NCBI GenBank assembly: GCA_003021085.1
Contig: PXRE01000009.1
Coordinates: 16,334-80,333, forward strand
DNA length: 64,000 nt
Direction: 5' to 3'
DNA from: Halobacteriales archaeon QS_1_68_20
Lineage (GTDB): Archaea > Halobacteriota > Halobacteria > Halobacteriales > PXRE01
The translations under genes were made by a program, and so were the position numbers. The notes under the pieces are model-generated. The model did no database searches and was not told the DNA's origin. It was given only the letters and a program-made list of their open reading frames with translations. This document shows, one piece after another, positions 17,848 through 52,000 of this stretch. The first letter of the stretch is position 1, and each line of letters opens with the position of its first letter.

Positions 17848-18159
17848 ATGCGTCCCCGGGTGCCGTGGATGAACGAGGTCGACACCGCGATCCTGGAGTA
17901 CTTCGCGGAACTCGGCGCGGTGGACGGCTCCCGGGTTTCCCTTGCACCGACGCCGCTGTACGTGAACCTCGTCCAGCGGATGGGCGTGGTCGACGTCCAG
18001 CCGAATACTCTGTCCCGGCGAATGAGCAGGTTGGCGGCGATGGGCTTTCTGGAGAAGATCGACGAGAAGCGGGGCTACTACTGTCTGACCGAGATGGGTG
18101 AGGCGTTTCTGGCGGGTGAGCTGGATGCCGAGGACATTCCGCGGCCCGAAGACAACTAA
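17848..18159 (+). CDS. Winged-helix regulator (PhiH1 repressor/MarR-like)
   Basis: MRPRVPWMNEVDTAILE...RGYYCLTEMGEAFLAGELDAED. Confidence 0.82.
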   Translation: MRPRVPWMNEVDTAILEYFAELGAVDGSRVSLAPTPLYVNLVQRMGVVDVQPNTLSRRMSRLAAMGFLEKIDEKRGYYCLTEMGEAFLAGELDAEDIPRPEDN

Positions 18160-18246
18160 CGTACTCGTAGTGCCGTTCTGATCAGTTTGTCAAGATGGAC
18201 ATGGCTGGTGGGCAGGTTTTTCTTGTAGGCGTGTGGGCGGGGAGAT

Positions 18247-29052: not shown

Positions 29053-29066
29053 TCGGACCTCGATCT

Positions 29067-29293
29067 TCGGGTTCGTAGTCCTCGTGGATCCGGTCCATCC
29101 GCGCGGCCACGATCGACCACCTTTTTCGTCGTCGGGTGTCCTCGGGCGCTCTTCGAGCGCCCTGCGGGCACCGCTCCTCGAAAAAGCTGGACCAAAACGA
29201 CCGCCCGCTCCCTCGCGTTCGCTCGGTCGCGTCCGCCGGACGATTACTCCTCGGGTTCGTAGTCCTCGTGGATCCGGTCCATCCGCGCGGCCA
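29067..29293. repeat. 43-bp exact direct repeat flanking a palindromic element
   Basis: TCGGGTTCGTAGTCCTCGTGGATCCGGTCCATCCGCGCGGCCA at 29067-29109 and 29251-29293. Confidence 0.9.
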
Positions 29294-29603
29294 TGACGAA
29301 GTCGGTCTTGTGCAGGCCGTCGATCTTGTGGGTCCACATCTCGACGCGGACCTCGCCCCACGAGAGGTGGAGGTCCGGGTGGTGCCACTCCTCCTCGGCG
29401 AGTTCGCCCACCTCGTAGGTGAACTCCAGGGCGTCCCGGAAGTCCTTGAACTCGTAGGTGCCATCCAGGTGGTGGTCGTCGACGACCTCCCAGACGTCGT
29501 CCCGGAGTTCGTCGAGGTACTGGTCGTACTCTCCGGCGGTGAGCGGTTCGTCCTCGCTCGTGCAGGCCTCACACTCCTGGTCGGCGAGCGCTGTTTCGGA
29601 CAT
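29244..29603 (-). CDS. Pterin-4-alpha-carbinolamine dehydratase
   Basis: [29 protein letters not shown]. Confidence 0.92.
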
Positions 29604-37838: not shown

Positions 37839-37944
37839 CCACTGGCGCCGCGGCGCGTTCGGGCGGTGGCGAACGGGCCGAACATCACGAACCCGACGAT
37901 GGCGGCGTCCACTGGCACCGCGGCGCGTTCGGGCGGTGGCGAAC
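37839..37944. repeat. 36-bp direct repeat x2 (1 mismatch), 34-bp spacer
   Basis: CCACTGGC(G/A)CCGCGGCGCGTTCGGGCGGTGGCGAAC at 37839-37874 and 37909-37944. Confidence 0.85.
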
Positions 37945-37981: not shown

Positions 37982-38449
37982 ATGGACGCGGTTCGAATCG
38001 CCTGGGGGACCGGGACGGGACCGACCGAACTGGCCGCCTACGACGCGGCGCTGGCCGACGCGAACCTGCAGGACTACAACCTCGTGACCGTCTCGTCGGT
38101 CGTCCCGGCGGGTGTCGAGGTCGAACAGGTCGGGACCGCACCGGACCTCGGGACGGCGGGCGAGCGCCTGCACGTCGTCCAGGCCCGCGCGACCGTCGAC
38201 GGGCCGGGCGAGGTGGTCGCCGCCCTGGGATGGGCGACCGGCGAGGACGCCGGCGTCGTCTACGAGGCCACGGGCGGGTCCGAGGCCGCGGTGCGCGACG
38301 AACTGGCGGCCGGCCTCGCCGCTGGCAGCGAATTACGCGACCGGACGATGGACGAGCGGGAGTTCCGGGTCGTCTCCGCGGATGGGGAACCGGACTGCGC
38401 CACGGCCGCGGTCGTGGTCGCGGCGTTCGGTCGGGGCGACCCGATCTGA
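37982..38449 (+). CDS. pdaD: Pyruvoyl-dependent arginine decarboxylase
   Basis: AYDAALADANLQDYNLVTVSSVVP with Ser-Ser cleavage site. Confidence 0.88.
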   Translation: MDAVRIAWGTGTGPTELAAYDAALADANLQDYNLVTVSSVVPAGVEVEQVGTAPDLGTAGERLHVVQARATVDGPGEVVAALGWATGEDAGVVYEATGGSEAAVRDELAAGLAAGSELRDRTMDEREFRVVSADGEPDCATAAVVVAAFGRGDPI

Positions 38450-38492
38450 CCGGACCTTTATAACCCTCGGGCTATTCTATGTAGCCTATCCG

Positions 38493-38873
38493 ATGAACGC
38501 GAACACCCCGTACGCAGGGCTGCCGGGCGTCACCCCGCCGGGCGAGCGCGCACCCGAGGACGTGTCCGAGGTGACCCCAGAGCAGCACCGTGCCCTCCGC
38601 GAGCACGTCTCCGAGATCGCGTCGCTGACCCGCGAGTACCTGCCCCACGAGTACGCGATCGGCGCCGAGGTCCGCCGCGGCGCGACCGGCCCGGAGGCGA
38701 CCGTCGCCGTCGAACCACCGGTCGGCCACCCCGTCAGCGCCGGCCTCTCGCCCGAACTGAACGACATCGAGGATCTCGACGTCGACGCCAGCGAGGTGGC
38801 CCGCGGCCTGGCCGCGACTGCGGCGTTGCAGGTCAAGCAGGCGATGGACGGCCATGACCTGGCCGCGCGATAG
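38493..38873 (+). CDS. Conserved haloarchaeal protein (DUF5811-like)
   Basis: MNANTPYAGLPG...PPVGHPVSAG...LAATAALQVKQAM. Confidence 0.8.
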   Translation: MNANTPYAGLPGVTPPGERAPEDVSEVTPEQHRALREHVSEIASLTREYLPHEYAIGAEVRRGATGPEATVAVEPPVGHPVSAGLSPELNDIEDLDVDASEVARGLAATAALQVKQAMDGHDLAAR

Positions 38874-38993
38874 GCCGGACCCGGCGGTCCGTTCTGCCTT
38901 CCGTCGCGGATCCGAGTGGCGACGCCGGGTGCCCGCTCGTAATCGCGTAACTGGCCCCCGAGCATTATTGCCCTACGTTGCCTTGTTCCGGAT

Positions 38994-39990
38994 ATGCCCT
39001 TCAGCGTCTCGTGGCACACGCTTCTGGACGAACTCGAAGACCTCCCCGAGGGGTCAACGCTCATCACGCTGCTGTCGCACGACCGATTCCGCGTCACCGA
39101 CGTACAGGAGCAAACGGGTCGTCATCGAGTTTCTGGACCGGGACATCGAGGAGACACGACCACTCCAACGCGACCAGGTCGAGACCCTCTATCGACGCAT
39201 CAGCGACGAGCCGGGCGGCTTCGACCTCGACCGGCTCCCGCCCGATGCCGACCCGTACCCTGCCGTGCTGAGCCTCCACCCGCGCTTCGAGGCCGATGAA
39301 GACGCCAGGGTCATCACCGAAACCGAAGGTCCGACCTCGACACAACTCCTCGAAAGCGAACCCGAGACGGACACTGCCGAGCGCACCGAACCGGACCTGG
39401 ACGTGTATGCGGACGCTCTCCTGCTCGTTGACGCGCTCGAACGCCACGAGGTCGAGGTGCTGGAGGAGATGGACACGGACGCGCTCGTGAACCTCTACAC
39501 CCTGCTCTCGGACGTACAGCGCAACGCCAACGACCTCCGACAGGACGTAGCCGACGTGCTGTTGAACCGGCTCCACCACGACCGCCCGGTGTCCGGTCCG
39601 TTCGGCTCCGTCCAACGTACCACCCGGCGCAATCGGTCGCTCAAGGACGACGAGGAGGTCCTGGAGACGCTCGAAGAGGTGGGTATCGACCGCGAGCGCG
39701 TGCTGGGTGTAGACCGTGATAAAGTAGACGACGCCCTTGAAGTGACAGAGCTGTCTGAATGCGACGTGTACGATATCGAGGAGTCCGAGTACGTCCGGAA
39801 GGCCGAGGTGGACGAGGAACGCAAGGAGACGCGCCTCCAGGGTCTCAAAGACCAGCTTGCGGCCGCCGAAGGCGACGAGGCCGAAGAACTGCGCGAGGAA
39901 ATCGAGGAACTGGAAGGCCGCATCGAGGAACTAACCGAATTCAAGTCCGGGTCGCAGTTTCATACGCGGGCGGGCGCAGGCGGTAAATAA
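38994..39990 (+). pseudogene. Accessory hypothetical protein with frameshift near 39112
   Basis: MPFSVSWHTLL...TDVQEQ joins RVVIEFLDRD if one A is removed from GAGCAAACGG. Confidence 0.7.
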
Positions 39991-40004
39991 GTAAATCCTG
40001 CTTC

Positions 40005-40018
40005 ACTTCCCCCAGAAG
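40005..40018. repeat. att core (left)
   Basis: ACTTCCCCCAGAAG; reverse strand reads FWGK-TGA. Confidence 0.88.
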
Positions 40019-40084
40019 AAGGCGAATCGTGTATACGGACGTCAACACAACTAAGTTGGTGGAGGTGTGAGTATCGGGTAGGCA

Positions 40085-40621
40085 ATGAGTGAGCAAGTTC
40101 ACATCCGCGTCGGTGAATCCCGCCACGAAAAGTGGGTCAATCACGCCGAAGCGGAGTACGACGGGAACATGTCGAAACTAATCCGCGCCGCGGTCGAGAA
40201 GGAAATCAGTGGAGCGGGCGACACCGCCACAGACGGCGCTCAGACGGTCGAACCGAACGGACGGATAGACGACATCCTAAACGGTGTTGAGGACAACGGA
40301 AGCGCCCTCGAAGCGATACAAGACCGCCTTGAGAACATGCACGACACCATGCTTTCGCAGGGTGGACTTCCCGATAAAGTGTTTTCCGACGTGTACGGCG
40401 CTCTACCCGTGGTGAAAGACGGCTTCGAGGGGGCGGACAAGGACGCTATCGCCGTGGAGTTCGGCGCGACGGCGGCAGAAATCGCAGACGACGCGGGTGT
40501 GTCCGAACTCGAAGCGGAGCGGGCGCTTGTCCAACTCCGCTACGAGGACGAATACAGTGGCGTGGAGATGTTGATGACTGAAGGGTTCGACTCGCCCCGC
40601 TACTGGTTGGAGGTACGCTAA
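40085..40621 (+). CDS. Ribbon-helix-helix protein with C-terminal HTH-like region
   Basis: QVHIRV...NMSKLIRAAVEKEI; TAATG coupling to the integrase. Confidence 0.75.
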   Translation: MSEQVHIRVGESRHEKWVNHAEAEYDGNMSKLIRAAVEKEISGAGDTATDGAQTVEPNGRIDDILNGVEDNGSALEAIQDRLENMHDTMLSQGGLPDKVFSDVYGALPVVKDGFEGADKDAIAVEFGATAAEIADDAGVSELEAERALVQLRYEDEYSGVEMLMTEGFDSPRYWLEVR

Positions 40622-41688
40622 TGAGTACCACGGACCCTATCGAGAGTTACCGCGATAGTTACGTTCTCCGTTCGCAGTCCGACGCGGCAGAAAACACGGT
40701 AAAGCGCCACGTCCGCCACCTCCGCATGTTCGAGACGTGGCTTCAAGAGCGCGGCAAGGATCTTCAAAGCGACATTGAGGTTGAGGATGACCTACTGCGG
40801 TTCCGTCGGTGGCTGAACCTGCGAGGGGCTGGCACCGAGTGTCCCGAGTGTGAGACGGTCGCGGACCCCTTCGAGGACCATTGTCCCGACTGCGGGGCCG
40901 ACGTATCGGAGGGTGAACCAGTCGGCTATTCGGAAGGGACTATCAAGAACGCCACGGGGGCCATTAGCAAATTCTTCCAGATTCGTCGCCCCGATGACCC
41001 GAACCCCGTAGACGAGTGGGAACCCACGGGGTCGGACGGCAAGTGGTCAATTACCACGGACAAGAAGCGGGCGACTCGGGAAGGTGTGTTCTACCTCGAA
41101 TCCGATGAGGTAGACCAACTGATTGAAGCGGCAGAGGGCTTTCGGGACAAACTGGTTATCCGTCTCCTGGTTTCCACGGGAATGAGGCGGTCAGAACTAA
41201 TCAGCCTGCGACTGAGGGACGTGGAGCCTGGCCAGAAGCGAATCCGTATCTACGAGCGGAAGAACGACGAGTATCGGACGGTCGGCTTTCGGTCGGACAA
41301 ACTGGCGCGGAACCTGCGGATGTGGATTGACCACCACAGAACGCAGGAATACGGGGCCGACGAAAGCGACTACCTCTTTCCGCCAGACGGGAAGGGGGAG
41401 AGTGACCACCTGGGGGCCACCGTGGTACGGGATATAGTGGTTGAAGCGGCAGAACGCGCGGATATTCAGCAGTCCTACGGGAGTGACGCCCTCGGGAGAA
41501 CACAACACCTTGTAACCCCCCACGCTCTACGGGCCACGTTCGCCGTCCAATGCGCCAAGAACGGGATTCCCGCCCCTATGGTGAAAGAGGCTCTTGGCCA
41601 CCACTCCCTGAACGTCACGGACATCTACACGTCCGTGATTGACGACGACGCGGCAGACATGATTCGGCGCGACGGACCTTCATTCTGA
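40621..41688 (+). CDS. Tyrosine integrase with inserted zinc ribbon
   Basis: TGMRRSEL, HALR, LGHH, IYT catalytic motifs; CPEC-x10-CPDC insert. Confidence 0.95.
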   Translation: MSTTDPIESYRDSYVLRSQSDAAENTVKRHVRHLRMFETWLQERGKDLQSDIEVEDDLLRFRRWLNLRGAGTECPECETVADPFEDHCPDCGADVSEGEPVGYSEGTIKNATGAISKFFQIRRPDDPNPVDEWEPTGSDGKWSITTDKKRATREGVFYLESDEVDQLIEAAEGFRDKLVIRLLVSTGMRRSELISLRLRDVEPGQKRIRIYERKNDEYRTVGFRSDKLARNLRMWIDHHRTQEYGADESDYLFPPDGKGESDHLGATVVRDIVVEAAERADIQQSYGSDALGRTQHLVTPHALRATFAVQCAKNGIPAPMVKEALGHHSLNVTDIYTSVIDDDAADMIRRDGPSF

Positions 41689-41852
41689 GTACCAACCGCG
41701 GACGGACCCACCTTCTACGACGCTACCCCACCTTCGGACAGTGGAAACACCGCTCCACGGGGTTCAGTGACCACCGACCGCCCCGCCCGTCGGGAGGACT
41801 CCCCGCGCCCGCCCCGCGTCGCGTCTAATCGGAACTGAGGACCCGCGCCCGC

Positions 41853-42494
41853 TCAGTCCGCCACGTCACTCAGTGACAGTCCCGCCCATTCGAGTAGTTC
41901 GAGGGCGTCGTAGTGAGGGACCACTACCACGTCGGGATGCCAGTGGTAGCGGGCGGTATGGGTGTCCTCCGCATACCCGTCCCCGTCGTACCTCACCGTG
42001 GCGACGCCCTCACTGGCCAGTAGGCTCCGCAGGTGGTCGCCGTCCACGTCGAAGCCCCGTAGGTCCACGTGGAGCGACCCGAATAGGGTCCCCACCCACG
42101 TCGCCCGCTCAGTGAGGACGAGACGCGCCGTGAGCGGTCGCAGTTGGGATACGTCCGTGGGTCCGTCGTAGGCCACGGACGGATGGGGGACCGACGTGAG
42201 CGCCCACATGTCGCTACTGGCGGGGTCAGTCGCTTCGACGTGGCGACGTGGGGAGTTCGCCAGCCACCCGAGCGCGTCCGCCACGGACGCCAACCGCCAC
42301 CGCTTGGTTGAAAACACCTCTAATCGGGATTCTGCGCCGTCGTCGCGGACGTTCGCCCCGAGAAGTATCAGGTACTCCACTACCGCCCGCTGGCGGTCGG
42401 ACAGTTCGGGGCGGTCGCAACGACCGACGGCGTAGTGTTGCCCAAGTCGCTCGAAGCGGTCGCCACACTGCGGACACCTGTTCACGGTTTTCAC
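41853..42494 (-). CDS. Degenerate LAGLIDADG endonuclease-like protein with N-terminal Cys/His motif
   Basis: CPQCGDRFERLGQH...C.RPELSDRQRAVVEYLILLGA...SVPHP...L.PLTAR pattern; start uncertain. Confidence 0.55.
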   Translation of the reverse strand: MKTVNRCPQCGDRFERLGQHYAVGRCDRPELSDRQRAVVEYLILLGANVRDDGAESRLEVFSTKRWRLASVADALGWLANSPRRHVEATDPASSDMWALTSVPHPSVAYDGPTDVSQLRPLTARLVLTERATWVGTLFGSLHVDLRGFDVDGDHLRSLLASEGVATVRYDGDGYAEDTHTARYHWHPDVVVVPHYDALELLEWAGLSLSDVAD

Positions 42495-42705
42495 GTAACT
42501 GAGCGGGAAACTACCCCGCTTAGAGACGATTTCTCGACATTTTGACGTATTTCGCAAAACCGTTTGCTACCATTCACTCCGCTGGATTCGTCCCACGGAG
42601 GACACCGCGCCCGCGTGATTCGCTCTTTGATTTCTCTAATTTTGTCGTTCATTTTTCACGTCCGTATCCGTCGGGGACGTATCAGTTTGCGGAGGTATCT
42701 TGACC

Positions 42706-42889
42706 GCCAGCATAATCCCCGCGCGTGGCTCCACGTCGGTGGACCGCTCCGCCACCGACTTGACCGCTCCACGCCCACATCCCCAACGGGCTTACCCTAT
42801 ACTACGCCCAGCGGACAGAGACGGCCTAAAACGGCGGTTTCCGTTTAGGCGGGTGTGAGGGGGTCGCCCCGTGTTGGAGCGTTGGGGCG
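42706..42889. repeat. Long imperfect inverted repeat, copy A
   Basis: Reverse complement aligns to 45952-46134. Confidence 0.85.
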
Positions 42890-43173
42890 GAGTTATTAAA
42901 TTGGGTTTGGCCATATCAGTTCTCCGACACTGGCGTCATCGCGTCTCTCGAAGGAATTGAGGCTTCTCACGGAATAACGGCCTTAGAACCGCTTAGAGCG
43001 TGTTAATAACGACTCACTCTAACTACGTACAAAGTGAAGGCAGTGGCCGAAGGCGACCACACGCGACGAACAGCGGACGCCCGTCTTAGGCGTTCTACTC
43101 CCCGCCCTCACTCTGATTACGGTATTAGTGTGAGGACGGTGGACGTGGACGGCCACCGCCTTGGTGATTAGAT

Positions 43174-43338
43174 ATGGCCCGTGACAAACGGATTCGACTG
43201 AGCGAGGACGAAAAGGCGATTCTGAATGACCTGCGGAAACGGCGGTTCGGGGGCGACCAAACCCCCTACGGCCACGTGGTCGCAGAACTCTGCCGATTCT
43301 ACGACGCAGAGACGCAGAACACGAACGTGAAACTATGA
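43174..43338 (+). CDS. Small RHH-like protein (54 aa)
   Basis: MARDKRIRLSEDEKAILNDLRKRRFGGDQTPYGHVVAELC; below ORF-track cutoff. Confidence 0.75.
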   Translation: MARDKRIRLSEDEKAILNDLRKRRFGGDQTPYGHVVAELCRFYDAETQNTNVKL

Positions 43339-43508
43339 GCGGGGCGGAAACCTGCGAATCAGACGGGTGTGAGGGGTGGCCCGAGTTCCCCGACGACGAC
43401 GGTGGTTACTACTGTCGTGGCTGTTACGACGGCGACCCCGAGTTTCGCCACGTTCCCGACGAACCGACTGGATACCGAACCGACCTGATTTCGAGGCTTC
43501 AAGCATGA
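43335..43508 (+). CDS. Small Cys-motif protein (57 aa)
   Basis: ATGA overlap; CESDGC...YCRGC. Confidence 0.7.
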   Translation: MSGAETCESDGCEGWPEFPDDDGGYYCRGCYDGDPEFRHVPDEPTGYRTDLISRLQA

Positions 43509-43600
43509 GAAAAATGTACGACGACAACGACATTCCCGACGAACTGAGCGACGACGAACAGACCACCAAATACACCATCCCGCTGGAGGATGACGAATGA
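43505..43600 (+). CDS. Acidic micro-protein (31 aa)
   Basis: ATGA overlaps at both ends; MRKMYDDNDIPDELSDD... Confidence 0.6.
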   Translation: MRKMYDDNDIPDELSDDEQTTKYTIPLEDDE

Positions 43601-43734
43601 CTGAAATAAATCCCATGTTGGCGCGAAAGGCGCGGAACGTCGGTGTGGAGTCCGACCTATTCGACTATACCGACCGCCAGAACGTCGATATTGAGGCGGT
43701 TCTTGAAACCGCCCTTGGTGAGGTGAGCGCATGA
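43597..43734 (+). CDS. Small protein (45 aa)
   Basis: ATGA overlaps; preceded by GGAGG; MTEINPMLARKAR...GEVSA. Confidence 0.65.
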   Translation: MTEINPMLARKARNVGVESDLFDYTDRQNVDIEAVLETALGEVSA

Positions 43735-43994
43735 ACGCCCTCACGGTCAAGAACCACCAGAACGTGGACGCCTTCGACCGCCTCACCCTCAACACGGAGG
43801 GACGCCTTGAGTTCGAGGACGGGACGCTTACGGCGGTCTACCCCGACGGCGCGGAGGAAACGGAATACGTGGTGGCGCTATTCCCCGTGGAGGGCGGGAC
43901 GGTCGAACTCACCGACTCCGCCGTGGTCCTCGAAGCGACGGGGGACACCGTGGTGGCGTTGGTCCCTGCGACGGCCTACGGGGGTGGTGAGTGA
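43731..43994 (+). CDS. Hypothetical beta-rich protein (87 aa)
   Basis: GAGGTGA SD and ATGA overlap; acidic. Confidence 0.75.
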   Translation: MNALTVKNHQNVDAFDRLTLNTEGRLEFEDGTLTAVYPDGAEETEYVVALFPVEGGTVELTDSAVVLEATGDTVVALVPATAYGGGE

Positions 43995-44679
43995 TGTACG
44001 ACGTTCGAGAAGCGCGGGACCGCGACGGCGACCCCGTGGAGGACCGCAGTGAGCGGATAGACGAACTCATGCGGAGCGACCGCGTGGGATACGGGGACGG
44101 CGACCCGTTGGCGGCAGATTCCTACTCGAACTACCCCGACCACCCCACGGAACTGTCCGCGCCCAAGTGGCGCGACTGGGTGGAGGTGCTTCTTTCCCAC
44201 CCTGCGGTCGGTTCCTACGACGACGCGGTGGCGGAGGCGACGCCCGCCAGTGACCAAGTGAGTGTTAGACAGTGGCGTGAGGGGATTCAGAACGCCGCCA
44301 ACGCCGCGGGCTTGGACGCGGGGGAACTTTCGACCTTAGCGACGACGGCGAACGGGACGCCACTGCGGACGCTCTGAGCGCCTTCACGGAACAGTGGCCC
44401 GACGACGCGGTACGGTCGAATAACCCGCTCGTGGTCGCCAACTTGTACGCGGGGCGTGGCCTGTCCACGGCGGAGGTGGCGGACCTATTCGACTGTTCGG
44501 AGGACCACATTCGGGGCGTTCTCCGCCAGTGTAGCCTACTCGAAGCCGCGGAAAGTGAACAGGTGGACCCGAAGCGCGAGAAGGACATTCGGCTTGGCGG
44601 GGCGACCGTCTCGAATCTGGATAACGCCGAACGGTCCAGCAGTGGCGGGCTGAACGTGGACGTGAGCGCGTTCGAGTAG
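43994..44679 (+). pseudogene. HTH protein split by a -1 frameshift near 44328
   Basis: GAA CTT TCG vs GAA CTT TTC GAC; the -1 frame continues to GLSTAEVADLFDCSEDHIRGVL. Confidence 0.65.
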
Positions 44680-44750
44680 CGGGCGGTAACTGAGCGGTAT
44701 GGTCGGGGTGGCGGTCGCTTCCCCGATTGGCCCACGTGACGGGCTTCATT

Positions 44751-45395
44751 ATGACGGCGACCACCACCCAACAGCGGTACGATTGGCAGACTGAGGAACA
44801 GATAGCAGAACAAGAGTTCGCAGACGGCTACCACGTCGAACGGGACCGACGGACCCCCGAACGTGACGGGTCCAACGACGCCCTCGAACACGACCAGAAC
44901 GAGGGGAACCCGAACGCCACGACCATGTACGGGGGTCGCTCCTCGAACGGGTACGACCCGAACGAGCGACTCCCCGCTTGTGAGCGGTGGGCGACCAAGG
45001 GCGACAAGTTCGCCAGTCTGTGGGCGCGGAACGCGGGGGTAGATTCCCACCGCGCGCCACGTCGTAGTCGGGCGGAATGTAACAAGGCCAACGAACGAAC
45101 CAAGGACCGCCAGCGGTTCGTTCAAGCCGTCGCCAACGCCCTACGGTTAGGGGAGGACGCGACGGAGCGGGCCAAGGAACTGGCGACCCTCCCCACGCCA
45201 AAGACCCTGAATTTCATCGGGGGACTGGATACGTGGCTTCTCGCGGTCACCCTCCACGCCGCCAACGAACAGCGGACGGTCATGCGGGTGGACCGCGACG
45301 CCCTCAAGGAGATTCGAGCGGACTGGGGCGTCACTACGGACCAACTGGCGACCGCCACCGAAAAGGTGGCGAATATCGTGAGGAAAGGGGCATGA
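44751..45395 (+). CDS. Divergent TFB/TFIIB-like protein (single cyclin repeat)
   Basis: RFVQAVANALRLGEDATERAKEL...LDTWLLAVTLHAANE...KEIRADWGVTTDQL resembles a TFB cyclin fold. Confidence 0.55.
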   Translation: MTATTTQQRYDWQTEEQIAEQEFADGYHVERDRRTPERDGSNDALEHDQNEGNPNATTMYGGRSSNGYDPNERLPACERWATKGDKFASLWARNAGVDSHRAPRRSRAECNKANERTKDRQRFVQAVANALRLGEDATERAKELATLPTPKTLNFIGGLDTWLLAVTLHAANEQRTVMRVDRDALKEIRADWGVTTDQLATATEKVANIVRKGA

Positions 45396-45688
45396 CTTAC
45401 GTCGAACAGTATGGGGTCCGAATCCCTGACGACGACGTGGCGAAGCGCATGGCCCGTTTGGAGAAACCCCACCGCGACGAAACCGTGTTGAAGTATCTCC
45501 ACTTCGAGTTAGGCATGTCGTCTGGCGACATCGGGCGACTGTTCGGGGTGAGACGCCAGACCATTCAGAAAGTGGTCCGCGGATTCGACTGGGAATTTCA
45601 CCGACGGCGCGGGGATAGTCGCGTGGTCGGGGAGGAACAGCGGACGCTTGGCGAGTTCGAGCGGACCACGCTTGAGGACCTGATTTAG
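45392..45688 (+). CDS. HTH DNA-binding protein
   Basis: ATGA overlap; GMSSGDIGRLFGVRRQTIQKVV. Confidence 0.8.
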   Translation: MTYVEQYGVRIPDDDVAKRMARLEKPHRDETVLKYLHFELGMSSGDIGRLFGVRRQTIQKVVRGFDWEFHRRRGDSRVVGEEQRTLGEFERTTLEDLI

Positions 45689-45951
45689 CCGACCCTTCTT
45701 TTTCAACGTATCAAAAACGGCGTAGCAGTCGCTCAGTCGTTTGAAATCGTACAAAAAGCGAAAAGCGGGAAAGGTCGTAGCGGGCCACCACCCAGTGACC
45801 ATACCGTGACTGCGAATGTCCCGACTGAGGACGGACGACAACTGAGGCAGGTCACGGGCGTCCTTTTCGCCTCTCCGCCTCACTCATATGTATGCCCTGC
45901 GGATAGAGACGGCCTGAGACGGCGGTTTTCAGATATTGGCCCGCTGGCGGT

Positions 45952-46134
45952 CGCTCGAACGCTCAAACACGGGCGGACCCCCGCGTGGGGACGAAAACGG
46001 ATTCGGGCGGTACAAGCGTTCTCTGTCCGCAGGGCATAGTATTAGGTAGGCCCGTGAGGGGGAAGGGCGTGGAGTAGTCAAGGCGGTGGCGGGCGGTCAC
46101 ACCGTCGTGGAGCCTGCGCGGGGATGTTGCTGGC
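45952..46134. repeat. Long imperfect inverted repeat, copy B
   Basis: Pairs with 42706-42889. Confidence 0.85.
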
Positions 46135-46201
46135 TTTCGTATTATGCAATAATTGAAACATCGTCGTGAACTTGATAGAGTTGGCGAGAGGCCGTTTTTA
46201 T

Positions 46202-46684
46202 ATGGTAAACATCGCTAACATTCTCGCAACAAGTGGATTAGGGCTTGATATTGTCGGAGCCGCCGTCATCGCTCTCCCCGACATCCCAAGACTGAGACTT
46301 GTTCTTGGGTCGGCAGTTATTCGGAATGGACTTGAAAAAATGGAGAGTACGGGGATTCAAGAAGGCGAAATCGGATATTCGCCGCTCAGGGAATTACTTG
46401 AGACGAAATACGACGTAGAGTTTCCATCCGATGTATGGGCCTTCAGAGTAGGTCAGTCCACTGCGTCAAGATATGGGTATGAATCTGTATTTTTGTTCAC
46501 CGACCCTGAAGATGAGTCAGAGCAGGTGGCATTAGGTAAAGACTTGGGGGTTGATGTTGATTACCGCGTGGTCAGAAAACAGATTCGACCACTTCTCGAC
46601 CGACAGCAGGCTATTGTCCGCGCAAGTGGTTTCCTTTTACTGAGTCTTGGGTTTCTTCTACAAATCGTGGCGCGATATATTTAG
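46202..46684 (+). CDS. Low-GC membrane cargo protein (N- and C-terminal TM helices)
   Basis: GLGLDIVGAAVIAL...GFLLLSLGFLLQIV; AT-richer than neighbours. Confidence 0.75.
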   Translation: MVNIANILATSGLGLDIVGAAVIALPDIPRLRLVLGSAVIRNGLEKMESTGIQEGEIGYSPLRELLETKYDVEFPSDVWAFRVGQSTASRYGYESVFLFTDPEDESEQVALGKDLGVDVDYRVVRKQIRPLLDRQQAIVRASGFLLLSLGFLLQIVARYI

Positions 46685-47016
46685 GTGGGTAAATTAGTCC
46701 ACGCCGAGCGCGGCCAATTGGGTCCTCACTGAGAAAACAGAAAATGAGGCTCAAACACGGGTGTGGGGGTCGCCACATATGCGCCAGAGTGATTTTCAAC
46801 ACGTGGCGGGCGCTCACCCACCCCTTACACTACGCGAGAAGGGACCCGTTTCGTGTGTAATGTTGACGGGGAGGGGTGGATTCGGTCGCCGTCTGGCGGT
46901 TTCGAGGCGTTCGAGAGAAGCCATTCCTCACCAACCTATCAGACTGTTAGAGTGGTCTGGCGGGTTAGACCCCCGATAGCCCCTGAACTGTATACACAGG
47001 CGACTACACAAAACGC

Positions 47017-48828
47017 CTACTTCCCCCAGAAGGGGTCCCGCGACCGGCGCTTCTCCAGGTACATGTTCAGCGCCTCCCGCTCGTCCATCGGGATGTCCTC
47101 CAGCAGTTCCTGCTCCAGGATCTTTGCGTGTTTCTCCGGCAGGTACGTCCAGAGTTCGTCGCCCTCGTCGACCTGGCGGCCGACCGTCGGGCCGTCGATG
47201 GCGACGCTCATCCGCTCGCCCGCGCGGGCCTCGTCGACGTCCTCGCCCTGGTCCTGGATGCCCTGGACCTCGCCGACGCGCTCGGGGTCGTCGCCGTCGA
47301 ACTTCGCCACGCCGACGTTGCGCTCCAGGGTGCCGGACATGACCTCGACGCCGATCACCGCGGGATCGGACTGGCGGAAGACGTGGTCCTCCAGGATGCG
47401 GAACCGGCACGGCCGGGTGATGTTCTCGAGCACCTGCTCCTGCTGGGCCTGCTCCAGTTCCTCGACGAACTCCTCGTATTCCTCGACCAGGCGGTAGATG
47501 ACCTCGCTCTCGAAGATGCGGACGTCCGCCAGGTCTGCCTCGTCGGCGGCGTCGTCGAGCACGTCCACGTTGAACCCCAGGACGACCCGGTGTTCGGGCT
47601 GATCGGCGGTGTCTGCGACCGTCACGTCACGGGGAGCGACGTCGCCGACCTCCGCGCGGACGATGGGGACCTCCGCCTCTTCGAGGGCGTCGGCCATCGC
47701 TTCGAGGCTGCCGAGCGTGTCGGCCTTGACGACGACGCCGTCCTCCTCGGTGCTGACGGCGACCTCGGCGAGTTCGGCCCGGACCTCAGCGACGACGTCC
47801 TCCACGGGGCGGTCGCCGACGACCCGGACGGGCGCCCCGGCCATCGCGTCCGCCAGTTCCGGGGCGGCGATCTTGATCCCGGACGCGGCCGTCACGTCGG
47901 GGACCTGCTCGAACCGGCTCTCGGCGCGAATCTCGGCGAGCGACCGGGGTTTCAGCAGTGCACGGACGTCGGTGACGATCGGTTCCTCGGTGCCGCCGAC
48001 GACGATCCGGTCGTCCTCGCTGATCGTCCCGTCGTACAGGACGACGTCGACGGTGGTGCCGAACCCCTTCTCTTCCTTGACTTCGAGGACGGTGCCGGCC
48101 CCCGGTCCGGAGACGTCGATCTCCATCTCTTCCCGGAGGTACCGCTGTGACAGGCCCATCAGGACGGTCAGCAGGTCGGGGATGCCCTCGCCCGTCTTCG
48201 CGCTGACGGGGACGACGCCGACGTTGGCCTGGAAGTCCTGCACGCGCCAGTACATGTCCGCCGAGAACCCGGCGTCGCTGAGGTCGCCGATGATCTCGTA
48301 CAGCGAGTCGTCCAGTCGCGAGGTCGCGTTGTCGCTCTGGGCCTCGTAGGTTTCCTGGATCGGCGTGTCCTCGTTGGGGTTCCACCCGGGGACGGCGTCG
48401 ATCTTGTTCGCGGCGACGACGAACGGCGTCTCCGAGCGCCGGAGGATGTCCAGGGCCTCCTCGGTCTGGGGCTGGAAGCCGTCGTTGACGTCCACGACGA
48501 GGATGGCGATGTCCGCGAGCGCCCCGCCGCGCGCCCGCAGGGTCGAGAACGAGTGGTGGCCGGGCGTGTCGATGAACAGCAGGCCGGGCAGGTCGAAGTC
48601 GTCGGGATCGACGAGCCGGCCCGCGACCGTCGAGACGACGTCCAGGGGGACCGCCGTGGCGCCGATGTGCTGGGTGATCGCGCCGGACTCGGCCTCGGCC
48701 ACGGTCGAGCCGCGGACCTTGTCCAGGAGGGTGGTCTTGCCGTGGTCGACGTGACCCAGGACGGCGACGATGGGCGTGCGAAGCGTCTCGGAGGCCGGGA
48801 TTTCGGGGTCTTGATCGGGTTCCGACAT
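47017..48828 (-). CDS. infB: Translation initiation factor IF-2 (aIF5B)
   Basis: GHVDHGKT, GAITQHIG, DTPGH, NKID, KADTLGSLEA; ends DPFWGK. Confidence 0.97.
   Translation of the reverse strand: MSEPDQDPEIPASETLRTPIVAVLGHVDHGKTTLLDKVRGSTVAEAESGAITQHIGATAVPLDVVSTVAGRLVDPDDFDLPGLLFIDTPGHHSFSTLRARGGALADIAILVVDVNDGFQPQTEEALDILRRSETPFVVAANKIDAVPGWNPNEDTPIQETYEAQSDNATSRLDDSLYEIIGDLSDAGFSADMYWRVQDFQANVGVVPVSAKTGEGIPDLLTVLMGLSQRYLREEMEIDVSGPGAGTVLEVKEEKGFGTTVDVVLYDGTISEDDRIVVGGTEEPIVTDVRALLKPRSLAEIRAESRFEQVPDVTAASGIKIAAPELADAMAGAPVRVVGDRPVEDVVAEVRAELAEVAVSTEEDGVVVKADTLGSLEAMADALEEAEVPIVRAEVGDVAPRDVTVADTADQPEHRVVLGFNVDVLDDAADEADLADVRIFESEVIYRLVEEYEEFVEELEQAQQEQVLENITRPCRFRILEDHVFRQSDPAVIGVEVMSGTLERNVGVAKFDGDDPERVGEVQGIQDQGEDVDEARAGERMSVAIDGPTVGRQVDEGDELWTYLPEKHAKILEQELLEDIPMDEREALNMYLEKRRSRDPFWGK
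47019..47032. repeat. att core (right), within the infB 3' end
   Basis: ACTTCCCCCAGAAG overlapping the infB FWGK codons and stop. Confidence 0.88.
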
Positions 48829-49041
48829 AGATGTGCCCTCCGGGAAAAGGTTCTTACTTCGATGGAGTCGCGCGCGCGGTTTAAGCGCACGGGTTCGGCC
48901 CGGGGCGGCCAGCACGGCCCGGCACGCCGACGTCACCAGCCGACGGTTTCGGGCACCCCACCCGATTCCGTCGGTCCCACGATGGTTAGCCCCGTGACAG
49001 GAAAATTTTTTAACAGATGGCCGTGAGGGACGTCCAGAGTC

Positions 49042-52000
49042 ATGAACGACGATCGACATGACGACCCGGTCGAACTGCTCAGGCGGGAACTGCTCCGGAG
49101 CGGGGCGGTTCTCGGCGGGACGGCCGGATTGAGCTTCGGTGGGGCCGCGTCCGCGTGGTCCCGGGGGAGCGGCGGCGCGAACGCGCTCGCGCCGTCGTCG
49201 GACTCGACGTACGTCATCGAGCAAGGTGGGACCAGGATTCCACTGGCCACGGTCGGTGACTCGGGGACCCCGATCGAGGAGATCTACGACGCGAGCGACG
49301 ACGCGACGCCGACGGGGTACGAGGAGGAGGGCGTCAGCAAACTGTTCCTCGTCGAGCGCACCGACGAACCGGGTCTCGGGGTCGTCCACGACCGCGGGAA
49401 CGACCGCCTCCCGTCCGGGGGCGTCGTCGACGACTTCGAGGACGGCGACCTCGACGAGTACAGCCAGCACCGTGGTGGCAGCGCGGCAGTTACCTCGACC
49501 AGGCCTTTCGAGGGGTCGCACTCGCTGGAACTGACGACCCCCGGTGGCGGCGGCGCGTCGAAGGTCCTCTCGACGTCCGGCCTGGAGCGGTACCCCGAGG
49601 CCGGCGACGTCTACCGCACGCGGTGGTACCGCAGTAGCTCGGACTCTCGTGGCCGGAACCGGCTGTACTTCGGCGTCCAGGACGCCGCCAACTACTACGA
49701 GGTGTACGTCAACTACCCGCACAACGACTTCGAACTCCGGAAGTTCGTGGACGGGAACCGGACGACCCTCGCGTCCGCGAACGAGACCCCCCGGAAGGAC
49801 ACCTGGGTCGACTGGACCATCGACTGGGGGACCGACGGGACGATCACGGCCACGTACGACGACGGGCAGAATTCGGGGTCGCTGACCGCGACGGACGACC
49901 AGTGGACCGAGGGCGGCGTCGGGTTCTACCAGCAGGTCGCGTCGGGTGGCGTGAAGGCGTGGTTCGACGACGCACGGATTGTCTCGGGGTCTTCAACGGT
50001 GGTACTCGACGGCTTCGAGGACGGCGACGTGAGCGAGTACGCCGAGGACGCCGACAATACGGGACCGGCGTCGTTCCGGGCGGTCCCGGCGTCAGACGTC
50101 GGACTGGCCGCCCCGGAGGGGTCGACGGTCGGCCAGTTACAGGTCGACGGGACGCTGGACGGGTGGTGGACGGACCTGGGCGACCGGGGTCGGACGATCC
50201 AGGCCGGCGACCGGTTCGGCTTCCACGCGTACAACGGCAAACAACACGGGACGGTCTCGCTGACGTACTGGCGCAACGTGGGCGAGGCCGCGACCACCGG
50301 GCTGACGTTGCGCCTCGAGTACAAGTCCCAGCAACTGATCTGGCGGGACCGCGCCGACGGATCGACGTATGCCAGCGCGGACCAGTCGCTGGCCGCCGAC
50401 ACCTGGTACTGGGTGGAAGTCGAGATCTCCGACGACGGGGCCACGCACACGGCCAAACTCTACGACGAGCGAGGCGGGACGCTGCTGAACTCGCTCTCGG
50501 CGGAGTTCCCCGGCGGACAGGCGGACGGGATCGAGTGGCGCTACGGCTGGTGGAACCTCGACGGGACCGCGTACGTCGACGGCCTCGAACTGCTGGAGAC
50601 GGACCGGACGGACACCGGCGGGGCCCCTGGGTCGTCGAGGACGAACTGACGTCGTACCTCCCCGACGAGGGACTGGCGCACTGGCAGTGGGGTGCCAGCG
50701 AGGCCGCCGGCGGCGTGCTCAGTGGTGCGCTCCCGGGTGAGGACGGCCTGACGATCCGCCCCTCGTTCGGGGACAGCTCCGGGATCGACGACTGGCAGGT
50801 GCTCTCGACCGGGACCGGCTCCACGTCGGGGTTCTCGACGGACTTCGAGGGCGGTCTCGCGGACGCCTGGCAGGACGCGGCCGACTTCGGGACCGACGAC
50901 GGCGACCTGGTCGCCAGCGGTGGCGGCAAGATGTGGCGCGAGCAGTCCTCGGCCACCGGCGTCTTCGAGGTGCAGGACGTCCAGAACACTGCCAGCTACA
51001 CCGGGATCCGGAGCGCGTTCGTCGCCCAGGAGACGAAGTACGATGGCGCCGAGGGGTACGGCCTCCGGTGGATCCAGCACAGGAACGACAGCAACGACGA
51101 GGACTACTGGAGCGGGGACATCCGGCTGGAGCGACTGGATTCGCCCGCCGACAAGGGCCCGACGACGCTGGCGAAATTGACCGCGGACCACGACGGGCGG
51201 GTCAACACGGTCCGCGTCGAGCGCACGAAGACCGACGAGAGCGACGACGGCGACGAGGAGTACACCTTCGAGTGGACGCTGACGTACGCGGACGGGACCA
51301 CGAAGAGCGGGACGTACGTCGAGGGGTTCGACGAGACGTCCTACACCGAGTCGGACTACTGGGTGCAACGGCACGATTCCGGCGGCGCAAGCCAGCGTGT
51401 CGGCGGCATCAGCGTCGAGGGCAGGGACGGGGTCGGGTGGACGTCGCTGTCGACCGAGGACCCGGTGACGATCCGGACGGAGGTCAGCAGGGACCTCCAG
51501 ACGTACGTCGGGTACAAGCGCGACAAGATCGAACGGATCAGGAACATCACGACGGCGATGTTCGCCGACTACGACACGCCGAAGGATCCGGCGTCCGTCG
51601 ACTCCGCGGCCGAGCGGTACCTCGACAACCTCGAACCGCGGCTGGACGAGATGGGCCCCGACGAGGCCAGACTGCACATGGAGGTCCTCCAGCGGCTGAA
51701 CGCGGGCGAGCGCGTCAGCTTGGCGGCGTTGAACGCAGTGAACGCGGAACTTGGGCTGAACGACCAGACCGTCGTCGAGCAGTTCGCGGACGCGGCGGTC
51801 GACGCCCTCTCGTCGTTCATGATGGGCAAACTGTTCGAGCGGGTCGCCAGGGTCGGCCGCGCCGGCTCCTCCAGCGCGACCCGAAAGCTCATCCAGTCGT
51901 CGACCTTCGAGGACTTCGTCACGGGGCTGAACCGCCAGGTCGACAGCGTCTTCTTCGGGTCGACGTTCGGCGACGAGTTCTACGAGCGAATCGTCCGCAC

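Follow-up and report, generated by a model that had tools for sequence, protein, structure and literature searches.

In bacteriophage lambda, the immunity region is arranged so that PL/OL/nutL and PR/OR/nutR flank cI-rex. Yeast plasmids of the 2-micron type are small circles in which an inverted pair of repeats separates two unique regions; these repeats are identical and recombine via Flp, both isomers coexist, and 2-micron-like plasmids keep the architecture while the sequence of the repeats differs. Among haloarchaeal mobile elements, the halovirus HF2 has repeated non-coding sequences with AT-rich motifs, conserved in position among relatives, and these intergenic repeats have promoter activity (PMC8707807), a precedent for promoter-bearing repeats. 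The PL6 family of Haloquadratum plasmids consists of 6-7 kb circles with outward gene blocks, conserved intergenic sequences that contain candidate promoters, and cryptic proteins (PMC5974055).

A pair of long inverted repeats in a 64-kb stretch of DNA from Halobacteriales archaeon QS_1_68_20, the whole of which we call the window, resembles each of these systems in part. As in lambda, two similar inverted regulatory regions would flank a regulator block and fire outward, one outward unit would reach the integrase gene through the att site, and leader hairpins would be common to both transcripts. The stretches that are alike in lambda, however, are just the short nut boxes and the 17-bp operators, against 40-230 bp here; the element is archaeal, with TBP/TFB promoters, any repressor, operator or antiterminator is putative, and there is no homology. 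The HF2 repeats are 29 and 58 bp long and many per genome, in a 77-kb tailed virus, as opposed to two long inverted cassettes in a 7-kb integrative element, and a DNA search found no sequence similarity to them. PL6 plasmids have one divergent intergenic region and not two inverted cassettes; the DNA search of plasmids gave no genes in common with PL6, and the protein search with o234 gave one weak match, in another plasmid. The 2-micron likeness lies in the small circle divided by an inverted pair and in the presence of a tyrosine recombinase, but the arms here are 75% alike and stand in one orientation in 10/10 elements.

Comparison of the window with itself by BLAST aligns 42706-42889 with 46134-45952 (75.1% identity over 185 columns, E = 3e-26), and this is the one inverted pair at E<1e-5 in the whole 64 kb. 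A repeat search returns the arms as two blocks, 42727-42846/45995-46114 (120 nt, 74%) and 42706-42724/46116-46134 (19 nt, 89%). Both searches bear out the original prediction of colinear reverse complements in coordinates and orientation; its identity of about 80% is somewhat high, 73-75% being measured between the arms. Both arms are non-coding, as had been argued from 1-nt indels: one such indel, GCGC[G]TGG, separates them, and each arm has at least one stop in each of the six frames of the 173-174-nt unit. A coding reading was rejected because the frame common to both arms has 3 synonymous versus some 13 non-synonymous differences (counted by eye), the copy in genome G281 shifts the frame, and stops occur in all frames. 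Search of the 3.39-Mb assembly finds the left and right arm as the only full-unit copies, plus a third, direct partial copy of 38 nt (45891-45928, 87%, E = 4e-6).

Table 1. Features of the element and of its inverted arms, in coordinates of the window
Feature	Position	Strand	Remarks
attL core (ACTTCCCCCAGAAG), left end of integrated element	40005-40018		14-bp direct repeat with 47019-47032
o178	40085-40621	+	Upstream of integrase; 63% amino acid identity in G158 element
Tyrosine recombinase (integrase)	40621-41688	+	PF00589, E = 1.7e-30
o234	41853-42494	-	213 aa with the GTG start of its database homologues; the longest ORF extends to 42557
o53m, small ORF between left arm and o234	42491-42652	-	Stop/start overlap with o234; 72% amino acid identity in Halosimplex
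Outer extension of unit (GATACCTCCG..CTGATACG)	42676-42705	-	94% to Halosimplex
Left arm	42706-42889	-	Outward = minus strand, toward o53m and o234; 91.8% (169/184) to Halosimplex left arm
Conserved hairpin, left arm, GTCGGTGG..CCACCGAC	42735-42759	-	
19-bp site (a), first of three TAYGCCCWGCGGAYAGAGA copies	42803-42821	+	Repeat search
AT box TTAATAA, inner edge of left arm	42889-42899		Fits haloarchaeal promoter motif only when read rightward
AT box GTGTTAATAACGAC	43000-43013	+	Conserved in Halosimplex
Central operon of small proteins	43174-45688	+	
o222	44727-45395	+	TFIIB-like cyclin fold (predicted)
Third partial copy (b)	45891-45929	+	Direct repeat of 42803-42840; contains site (b), 45891-45909, and GACGGCGGTTTT, 45918-45929
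Right arm	45952-46134	+	Outward = plus strand, toward o172 and attR, in the circle o178 and integrase; 83.1% (152/183) to Halosimplex right arm
19-bp site (c)	46020-46038	-	Inverted relative to (a) and (b)
Conserved hairpin, right arm, GGCGGTG..CACCGTC	46082-46106	+	
o172	46166-46684	+	Predicted membrane protein (by eye), downstream of right arm; absent from Halosimplex element
Second conserved non-coding region near attR	46705-46920		Core of about 80 bp recurs in four elements
attR core	47019-47032		Overlaps 3' end of aIF-2 gene (minus strand, stop at 47017)

An integrase-bearing element of about 7 kb (40005-47032) contains both arms; its insertion point is the 3' end of the aIF-2 gene, which matches NF003078 IF-2 with E = 6.3e-267 in an alignment that reaches the last profile position. 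Metagenome contigs of relatives begin aligning exactly at 40005, and loose contig ends lie at 47017-47019 in X1 and X2. In a brine metagenome, a related element occurs as a circle or tandem, one contig joining 46972 to 40005 at a depth of 384. The integrase matches NCBIfam XerA_Arch with E = 7.5e-41, below the family cut-off, and o178 has no Pfam, PHROGs or NCBIfam family. Within the central operon, o54 appears RHH-like and o57 a zinc ribbon (both by eye), and HTH matches, both weak, were obtained for o82 and for the 98-aa protein encoded by 45392-45688. No Rep, primase or helicase was recognised among the element ORFs in Pfam, PHROGs and NCBIfam, no orc1/cdc6 gene was found in the element with Pfam and NCBIfam, and no transposase family was found among 15 ORFs with Pfam and PHROGs. 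The location of the arms inside an integrated element, like the third partial copy, goes beyond the original prediction.

The structure predicted for o234 (AF2 pLDDT 86) combines an N-terminal zinc ribbon with a double LAGLIDADG fold, the double alpha-beta-beta-alpha-beta-beta-alpha arrangement of LAGLIDADG homing endonucleases. Foldseek matches it to I-SceI (E = 4.9e-6, TM 0.56) and to WhiA (E = 1.9e-4), and also lists I-WcaI, I-Tsp061I and I-DmoI; tblastn relates it to the LAGLIDADG endonuclease of HVTV-1 (E = 2e-5). In these endonucleases a conserved acidic residue closes each LAGLIDADG helix. With the register set by eye, Asp or Glu occupies the aligned position of motif 1 in 0/23 family members, and the Glu of motif 2 occurs in some members only. 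Because the catalytic acids are not conserved, cutting by o234 is unlikely, and the protein is probably non-catalytic. WhiA (PDB structures: 8dy9 and 3hyj) is a LAGLIDADG-derived bacterial transcription factor, and o234, with its LAGLIDADG fold devoid of conserved catalytic acids, adjoins a conserved cassette, as expected for a DNA-binding regulator. Unlike WhiA, it has an N-terminal zinc ribbon and lacks the C-terminal HTH; I-SceI scores better than WhiA, and DNA binding of o234 is putative. In o222, residues 112-214 superimpose, over 97 residues, on cyclin repeat 1 of TFIIB (rmsd 2.5 A, Z 12.2), and the o222 profile finds 1ais_B in the PDB (E = 0.033), with no match to Pfam TFIIB. By these models o222 is TFIIB-like in fold and is not a TFB; that assignment was rejected since only one cyclin-like domain matches, TFB/TFIIB consisting of a zinc ribbon, a B-reader/linker and two cyclin repeats.

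The element of Halosimplex aquaticum keeps both arms. Their identity to those of the window (Table 1), and that of the site-(b) copy (92.3%, 36/39, against 64-72% in its flanks), compares with 68-79% at third codon positions of o234, o222 and o128 and 64-73% in other non-coding stretches. Left arms are 91% and right arms 84% alike between the two species, and left versus right 71-75%. From these identities, the duplication is old, and both copies are retained and under selection. We compared ten related loci, the window included, each with both operon genes and an o234 homologue. Six of them (window, L028, L064, L065, L068, L069) have the inverted pair in the same two places, between the starts of o234 and the operon and just after the last HTH gene, with pair identities of 83% of 228 (L064), 87.5% of 96 (L065), 97% of 39 (L068) and 79% of 85 (L069). 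In L066 and L067 the pair surrounds o234, the second copy pointing at its 3' end; L063 has the o234-proximal arm only, a unit found with E = 3e-5 by an HMM built without L063; and L043 has none. The conservation in related elements on which the original prediction had staked itself is present in Halosimplex and, as an inverted pair, in six of ten loci. Arm sequences are unalignable between related elements; the order of motifs and a G-rich stretch on the outward strand are common to all arms; in G044, G158 and G123 the two arms are 92-97% identical over parts. The unit stands upstream of o234 in 9/9 loci of the closer o234 clade and is absent from 5/5 loci of distant homologues; G281 has it with no o234 nearby. 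Outward ORFs follow it in three settings, namely o53m-o234, o172 and a pair of small ORFs in G281; when integrated, the Halosimplex and G158 elements lack an ORF immediately beyond the right arm, and the integrase is co-oriented with the outward direction of the right arm in 5/5 elements with an identified integrase domain.

On the outward strand the arms share a motif order in which two AT boxes, the second of them TAGTATAGG-like, come before a G-rich run, with GGCGGTGG..CCGTG and then TTTGCTG after it. The first AT box (TTTATGTA, TTAAGT or TATATTACTTAAGT) is at the inner edge in 12/18 arms, and the second follows some 20-30 nt beyond it. In a promoter-bearing repeat of the HF2 kind, a TATA-like AT-rich box would be expected some 25-30 nt ahead of the start, on the strand that the downstream genes occupy. 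The haloarchaeal promoter motif SRnnRnnnTTWW, as quoted in PMC5974055, occurs in strict form on the outward strand in 7/14 arms, not always at the inner edge, and is missing from the other seven; the inner AT box of left-type arms fits it only when read inward. In the six window-type arms (both arms of the window and of Halosimplex, G281, G411) a GC-rich 19-bp site replaces the first AT box, and candidate TATA boxes lie about 95-120 nt further upstream. GACGGCGGTTTT, in the third copy, matches the motif read rightward, with a predicted start at about 45953, the first base of the right arm, and GTGTTAATAACGAC, conserved in Halosimplex, is likely to be the operon promoter. The three copies of the 19-bp site are altered together in Halosimplex (CCCWGCGG in the window, CCGAGCGG in Halosimplex), and G411 has a different 21-mer three times. 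Outward-strand GC skew reaches at least +0.5 in some 40-nt stretch of 14/14 arms, a figure set only against a background taken over 1 kb, not over 40 nt, whose absolute value does not exceed 0.16. The heptamer CGTGGAG occurs twice per arm, with extra partial copies in Halosimplex at 7550-7770. The hairpin of the original prediction is present in both arms; the change that it took as paired is, within the window, T-A to a G.T wobble that pairs only on the plus strand of the right arm, and in the G281 copy and the right arm of Halosimplex its compensation is complete (G-C). The proposed outward orientation is supported by the G-rich outward strand in 14/14 arms, the AT-rich TATA-like boxes at inner edges and the wobble pairs that fit only the outward strand.

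We favor, with about an even chance of being right, the explanation that the arms are twin outward-facing promoter/operator/leader cassettes flanking the regulatory operon, where we infer transcription, its direction and the identity of the binding proteins. They would be paralogous cis-regulatory cassettes of a plasmid- or provirus-like integrative element of about 7 kb, each with a promoter region, a G-rich transcribed leader and at least one site for protein binding (the 19-bp site and the GGCGGTGG..CCGTG hairpin or dyad), and both would point outward from the central operon, which encodes small DNA-binding proteins. Expression of o53m and of the putative LAGLIDADG/WhiA-like DNA binder o234 would depend on the left cassette; the right one would serve o172 and, once the circle is excised, read through attP into o178 and the integrase, so that both outward units would be co-regulated by the same element-encoded factors. 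Against such cassettes stand the 7/14 arms that lack the strict outward motif, the inward fit of the left-type inner AT box, the 19-bp site in place of the first AT box of window-type arms with candidate TATA boxes so far upstream, the right arms of Halosimplex and G158 with no ORF directly downstream, and a similarity of 100-230 bp that exceeds the needs of promoter and operator; for the second copy of L066 and L067, an mRNA leader would be a poorer fit than a promoter for an antisense RNA or sRNA. How small archaeal plasmids and proviruses control their genes is poorly understood. Should element proteins read the cassettes as promoters and leaders, the family would offer, in compact form, an archaeal counterpart to the immunity switch of a phage, with integration uncoupling one promoter from the integrase. 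The design of the family is constant: two long, inverted non-coding cassettes, which co-evolve, enclose a block of genes for small DNA-binding proteins. The family also encodes a LAGLIDADG-fold protein seemingly without catalysis and a protein with a predicted TFIIB-like cyclin domain. Among the hosts, at least Halosimplex aquaticum is available as a cultured isolate, which makes the reading testable.

Each arm might instead be a self-contained small-RNA gene, a promoter with an RNA of about 100-180 nt acting in trans, its two copies providing for dosage or for targets that differ slightly. In G281 the unit occurs by itself, in L066 and L067 it points at a gene 3' end, and it often has no ORF directly downstream; one hairpin covaries (two sequences have the pair GC, two UA and one GU), and the 38-nt copy (b), if transcribed with the operon, would be complementary to the left-arm RNA. 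We consider this unlikely: cmscan of 38000-50000 on both strands gave 0 Rfam matches at E up to 1, RNAalifold on five window-type arms, which are few and closely related, gave a covariation term of +1.8 (no net support) and any double change in 5/54 pairs, single-sequence fold z-scores are only -1.1 to -2.2, predicted local hairpins differ between left-type and right-type arms, and the outer-end T-tract is T4 at best. This tract is not conserved, for which reason a terminator there was rejected, and RNAalifold on the same arms leaves a whole-arm RNA structure unsupported. The covariance analysis with homologues that accompanied the original prediction as a check returned one covarying hairpin without net covariation, and the structured ncRNA then proposed is weakly supported, given that one hairpin, the RNAalifold term and no Rfam match. 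A function of the arms as DNA sites that replicate or maintain the episome, as paired R-loop-primed origins, iterons or partition sites, seems to us quite improbable. It would suit an element with no recognised Rep, primase or helicase, a relative found as circle or tandem (the 46972-40005 joint at depth 384), strong G-richness of the non-template strand downstream of the AT boxes, and short repeated motifs (CGTGGAG). Most element ORFs are without a known fold, however, and may hide a Rep; there is no AT-rich unwinding region or AT-rich stretch between close repeats, no origin-recognition-box consensus was noticed by eye, and the constant position upstream of o234 suggests gene control. Archaeal origins that depend on Orc1/Cdc6 have such ORB repeats on either side of an AT-rich unwinding element, beside an orc1/cdc6 gene. 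The specific version, transcription-primed origins of a Rep-less episome, is very improbable. Host RNA polymerase would start at the inner AT box, the G-rich outward transcript would stay on the C-rich template as an R-loop and prime DNA synthesis, as at the ColE1 ori or the mitochondrial light-strand promoter, and two inverted copies would give divergent forks, with firing controlled by the TFIIB-like and LAGLIDADG-like proteins. We know of no precedent for two origins 3 kb apart in a 7-kb circle. The packaging signals or duplicated origins of the original prediction may exist but are conjectural.

The arms could also be arrays of targets for o234, serving either WhiA-like regulation or nicking and cutting that drives gene conversion between copies, and it is because of such conversion that arms would be alike within an element and different between elements. 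An arm accompanies o234 in 9/9 loci of the closer clade and in 0/5 distant ones, the arms of G044, G158 and G123 are near identical in parts, and an asymmetric site of 19-22 bp occurs three times and changes in concert between elements; sites of this size are recognised by monomeric LAGLIDADG proteins. Set against the non-conserved catalytic acids, the left and right types kept without homogenisation in the window and Halosimplex, and the unit of G281 with no o234 nearby, this deserves very little credence. If o234 is a regulator, the reading merges with that of promoter/leader cassettes. Least credible, we think, are recombination sites or ends of an invertible segment (the 2-micron and Flp type), or terminal inverted repeats of a nested transposon. 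The circle is small, has 3 kb bracketed by an inverted pair and carries a tyrosine recombinase gene, and the architecture is kept in related elements with unrelated arm sequence; but o234 and the operon diverge in 10/10 related elements, with no change of their relative orientation, and no strand-changing joint is described among the 15 listed of 30 joints in contigs of four DNA runs. The arms here are 75% alike, with left and right types distinct and stable across two species, and other elements reach 83-97%; an invertible segment of the Hin/Gin or Flp-FRT type would occur in both orientations, between nearly identical repeats that contain the crossover site. These observations leave the invertible segment of the original prediction unsupported. 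For a transposon or MITE, the flanks differ with no target-site duplication visible by eye, and there are neither further copies in the 3.39-Mb genome nor a transposase among the 15 ORFs.

As for the distribution of the proposed promoter/leader cassettes, the family is seen in 12/400 sampled genomes of the class with o234 as marker, in elements of 6.5-7 kb. The 3.4-kb region had no DNA match in phages or plasmids, a conserved-pattern scan gave 0 matches in viral contigs, searches with o222 and o234 found no related loci there, and o128 had no usable match in Atlas. The single conserved-pattern match in metagenome contigs (L030) was rejected as a chance match in unrelated coding DNA, and two weak o222-profile matches (L044, L045) as unrelated loci. 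A literature search returned no description of the element family, weak evidence for its being undescribed. DNA search of 401 genomes of the class gave one extended match (G281, 125 nt, E = 2e-8), and short matches of 22-57 nt in 20 of them (E = 1e-4 to 9e-3) were taken for chance. Within the family of G403 (232 genomes), the search matched G403, G518 (in the contig place of G281) and a 62-nt piece in G411, whose left arm was not found, the contig ending there. Like the family-wide architecture of the pair, an extension of the unit by about 30 bp outward (42676-42705) in relatives was not part of the original prediction; it is found here at the left arm, in Halosimplex at both arms and in G281 in part.

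Sequence comparison bears out the original prediction that the two non-coding segments bracketing the central operon (the left and right arms; see the table) are colinear reverse complements of each other. BLAST aligns the pair over 185 columns with 75.1% identity (E 3e-26), so the repeat stands, although the claimed identity of about 80% has to be lowered to nearer 75%. A repeat search resolves a 120-nt core with 74% identity and a 19-nt outer block with 89%, and no second inverted pair was found at E<1e-5 when the whole window was compared by BLAST with its own minus strand. Across the 3.39-Mb assembly, no copies were found beyond these two and a third one of 38 nt (45891-45928), in direct orientation relative to 42803-42840 (87%, E 4e-6). 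A coding function is excluded by at least one stop in each of the six frames of both arms (173-174-nt unit) and by frame-shifting indels in an arm copy from another haloarchaeal genome, G281; between the arms themselves one 1-nt indel was found.

The repeats sit in an island of low GC content, 0.52-0.65 where the surroundings have about 0.68-0.72. A 14-bp direct repeat, ACTTCCCCCAGAAG, bounds the island, and its right copy shares bases with the 3' end of the aIF-2 gene, which is complete (NF003078, E 6.3e-267, aligned through the last profile position). The left end is adjoined by o178, together with a tyrosine recombinase gene (PF00589, E 1.7e-30). In relatives' contigs from other metagenomes the alignment starts exactly at 40005, and one brine-metagenome contig, at depth 384, links 46972 back to 40005, as a circular or tandem form would give. 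Island, direct repeat, integrase and contig joint therefore identify an integrative plasmid or provirus of about 7 kb; domain and profile searches of its 15 ORFs recognised no capsid, Rep or transposase family.

Coordinates of the features, and their identity to the Halosimplex counterpart or, for inverted pairs, between the two copies
Feature	Position	Strand	Identity
attL, 14-bp repeat	40005-40018		
o178 and integrase	40085-41688	+	
o234	41853-42494	-	78.9% (third codon positions)
o53m		-	
Left arm	42706-42889		91.8% (169/184)
Outer block, left / right	42706-42724 / 46116-46134		
Core, left / right	42727-42846 / 45995-46114		
Terminal hairpin, left / right	42735-42759 / 46082-46106		
19-bp asymmetric site (a)	42803-42821		
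Operon of nine or so small ORFs	43174-45688	+	
o54, first operon ORF	43174-43338	+	
o128			68.0% (third codon positions)
o222	44727-45395	+	78.4% (third codon positions)
Copy (b), partial arm	45891-45929		92.3% (36/39)
19-bp asymmetric site (b)	45891-45909		
Right arm	45952-46134		83.1% (152/183)
19-bp asymmetric site (c)	46020-46038		
Outer spacer, beside the left arm			94%
o172		+	
Conserved non-coding stretch	46705-46920 (core ~46815-46885)		
attR, 14-bp repeat	47019-47032		
Other non-coding stretches			64-73%
Pair in L064	158-380 / 3424-3644		83% of 228 bp
Pair in L065	10679-10772 / 13666-13761		87.5% of 96
Pair in L068	39 bp		97%
Pair in L069	85 bp		79%

Relatives of the element are present in contigs of metagenome runs X2, X4 and X5. 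In X4 and X5 the summed contig depth is about 340-590 over the o178-integrase module (40005-41688) and about 2-95 over 41776-46221; this module is probably common to several more abundant elements in these brines. In run X1 the flanks (39800-40046 and 46963-47200) have a summed depth of about 77-82 versus 9.5 for the element, and several contigs break at 47017-47019. As the depths are sums over organisms, this is no more than a hint that a minority of cells may have the element or that in other strains different inserts may occupy this att site. The conserved non-coding stretch near attR has counterparts in three related loci (L028 7791-8006, L029 10438-10492 and L069 10383-10454). Its core of about 80 bp, ACCCACCCC..TAC..GCGAGTAGGGACCCG..TAATCTTGACGGGG, is common to four otherwise diverged elements, and GGCTCAAACACGGGTGTGGGGGTCGCC (46748-46774), at the start of the stretch, is similar to the arms' inner end; the stretch could contain arm sites for the integrase or a further RNA.

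The chromosome of a cultured Halosimplex aquaticum strain (L028) carries an element that is collinear with the window's and has both arms as well as the partial copy. Both arms are better preserved between the two hosts than third codon positions or other non-coding stretches, which argues that purifying selection acts on them as non-coding DNA, and especially on the left one. Arms on the same side are closer across hosts (left-left 91%, right-right 84%) than left is to right (71-75%); thus the duplication predates the split, and there has been no homogenisation since. Beyond the right arm, at 7550-7770, where the window has o172, the Halosimplex element contains extra partial copies of outer arm motifs (GATACCTC..CTGATACG, CGTGGAG..GCGGGATTGTTGGCGG and GGGCGTGGAGTAG). 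G281 has a single copy of the right type, 77% identical to the window's right arm and placed upstream of two small ORFs, with none of the element's proteins nearby. A distant element, G411, encodes o87, o128 and o222 at 37-42% amino acid identity and has a right-arm-like region; its contig stops at the expected place of the left arm.

Of 400 other genomes sampled from the class, 12 encode an o234 homolog. We compared ten loci with operon genes and an o234 homolog, namely L028, L043, the window and the seven best o234-homolog loci. The operon is the divergently oriented neighbor of o234 in every one of them, and in six (the window, L028, L064, L065, L068 and L069) an inverted pair is present, with one arm between the starts of o234 and the operon and the other just past the last HTH gene. 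In L066 and L067 the pair flanks o234 itself, the second copy being aimed at the 3' end of o234 and antisense to it; in L063 one arm was found, only by a profile built without this locus (E 3e-5); and in L043 no arm was found, nor within 1.5 kb in five loci with distant o234 homologs. L066 (5903-5982 / 10983-11060) and L067 (8843-8957 / 9634-9749) also contain inverted repeats of a second kind, unrelated to the arms and made of runs of perfect hairpins, such as GTGCGGATAACTCCGCAC and GTGCGAA..TTCGCAC.

Arms of different elements do not align with one another by BLAST; what they have in common is the order of motifs on the outward strand. An AT box (TTTATGTA, TTAAGT or TATATTACTTAAGT; 12 of 18 arms) is followed, about 20-30 nt further on, by a second, TAGTATAGG-like AT box, then by a G-rich run, by GGCGGTGG, 5-13 nt and CCGTG, and often by TTTGCTG. 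The six window-type arms (two each from the window and Halosimplex, and those of G281 and G411) have the 19-bp site in place of the first AT box, with their own AT boxes displaced inward by about 95-120 nt. On the outward strand, GC skew reaches at least +0.5 in a 40-nt window in all 14 arms tested, the only comparison being a 1-kb background within 0.16.

We predict, at what we judge to be an even chance, that the arms are promoter and leader cassettes, because of their fixed place upstream of o234, the AT boxes at the inner edge, the strand asymmetry, and the position of arms before outward-directed ORFs in three contexts. For the right arm, the haloarchaeal promoter motif SRnnRnnnTTWW, which PMC5974055 quotes as centred at -27/-28, is matched by GACGGCGGTTTT (45918-45929); this would set the start at about 45953, at the arm's first base. 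In the circular form, the right arm comes to precede the integrase gene, which has the same strand, in all five elements with an identified integrase domain (the window, L064, L065, L068 and L069, with att sites determined for the window and L065 only), so that integration would sever the integrase from a right-arm promoter. A haloarchaeal precedent for promoter-bearing non-coding repeats is offered by the HF2 intergenic repeats, whose promoter activity has been measured (PMC8707807). In its logic, though not by descent, the whole arrangement is like the lambda immunity region.

Against this prediction, the strict promoter motif is absent from the outward strand in 7 of 14 arms, the inner AT box of left-type arms fits it only when read inward, no ORF directly follows several of the right arms, the second copy in L066 and L067 is antisense to o234, and the similarity extends over 100-230 bp, more than binding sites need. 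Such weak points keep three other explanations under consideration: the arms may be sRNA genes, they may have a DNA-level role in replication, or their likeness may come from gene conversion driven by o234. A known RNA family is ruled out by the lack of any Rfam match to the arms at E up to 1. With regard to the structured RNA originally proposed, the terminal hairpin is present in both arms and is the only part with a compensatory pair among five window-type arms; the paired change described for it is T-A versus G.T in the window, pairing only on the plus strand of the right arm, with full G-C pairs in two other copies. A globally structured RNA is argued against by a RNAalifold covariation term of +1.8 on these five arms, by single-sequence folding z-scores of -1.1 to -2.2, and by the unlike local hairpins predicted for left and right types. 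The suggestion that the arms are ends of an invertible segment is contradicted by the same orientation in ten of ten elements and by stable left and right types; among the 15 joints listed, of 30 in contigs of four metagenome runs, none was described as changing strand. Transposon ends were rejected for want of target duplication, further copies or a transposase.

The 19-bp sites, which in the right arm lie on both sides of the candidate promoter, have changed in concert between elements: those of the window have CCCWGCGG, the three of Halosimplex all have CCGAGCGG, and G411 again has three copies, of a different 21-mer, its 21-bp stem sequences being wholly unlike the window's sites. This is how an operator co-evolving with its binding protein would behave, and a natural candidate binder would be the monomeric LAGLIDADG-fold protein o234. 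Its family has 28 database proteins, none of them named. The model (pLDDT 86) has a double LAGLIDADG domain, matched by Foldseek to I-SceI (E 4.9e-6) and to WhiA, a LAGLIDADG-derived transcription factor (E 1.9e-4), and tblastn finds an annotated LAGLIDADG endonuclease gene of Haloarcula virus HVTV-1 (E 2e-5). With the register set by eye, none of the 23 members in the alignment has the terminal acidic residue of the first motif, nor is its second-motif equivalent conserved among them; o234 is more likely a DNA binder than a nuclease. Combining a zinc ribbon with a double LAGLIDADG domain whose catalytic acids are not conserved, it may correspond in archaea to the domesticated homing endonucleases of the WhiA type.

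Within the operon, o82 and the 98-aa product of 45392-45688 have weak HTH matches; as judged by eye, one further ORF resembles a zinc ribbon and the first is RHH-like. This first ORF, o54, has only 47.7% DNA and 32% amino acid identity to its Halosimplex counterpart, against 79-87% for its neighbors, which points to an exchanged specificity determinant whose site of action may lie elsewhere, possibly in the promoter region of the operon itself; this region has also diverged between the two hosts. The o222 family is rare: of 1.84 billion sequences searched at E<=1e-3, 21 representatives belong to it. In o222 the confidently modeled C-terminal 100 residues can be superposed on TFIIB's first cyclin repeat (Z 12.2, rmsd 2.5 A, 97 residues), and a profile search of PDB gives Pyrococcus TFB at E 0.033. 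This is likeness of fold in a helical domain, not membership; o222 would be a partial mimic of TFB encoded by a mobile element.

Repeated promoter and operator regions in mobile elements are of a known kind; new are long inverted cassettes around a regulator operon, conserved as architecture across small archaeal integrative elements, and a full-text literature search gave no paper describing such a family.

Elsewhere in the window, three direct stretches (11163-11814, 12132-12623 and 37040-37703) are 68-72% identical over 480-670 bp and are probably paralogous genes. Near-perfect direct repeats of 37 bp (100%), 49 bp (96%) and 36 bp (97%), in pairs 70-184 bp apart, are found at 7907-8014, 29064-29296 and 37839-37944. 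At 18001-19000 the window has its lowest GC content (0.477), and this segment may be another foreign insert.
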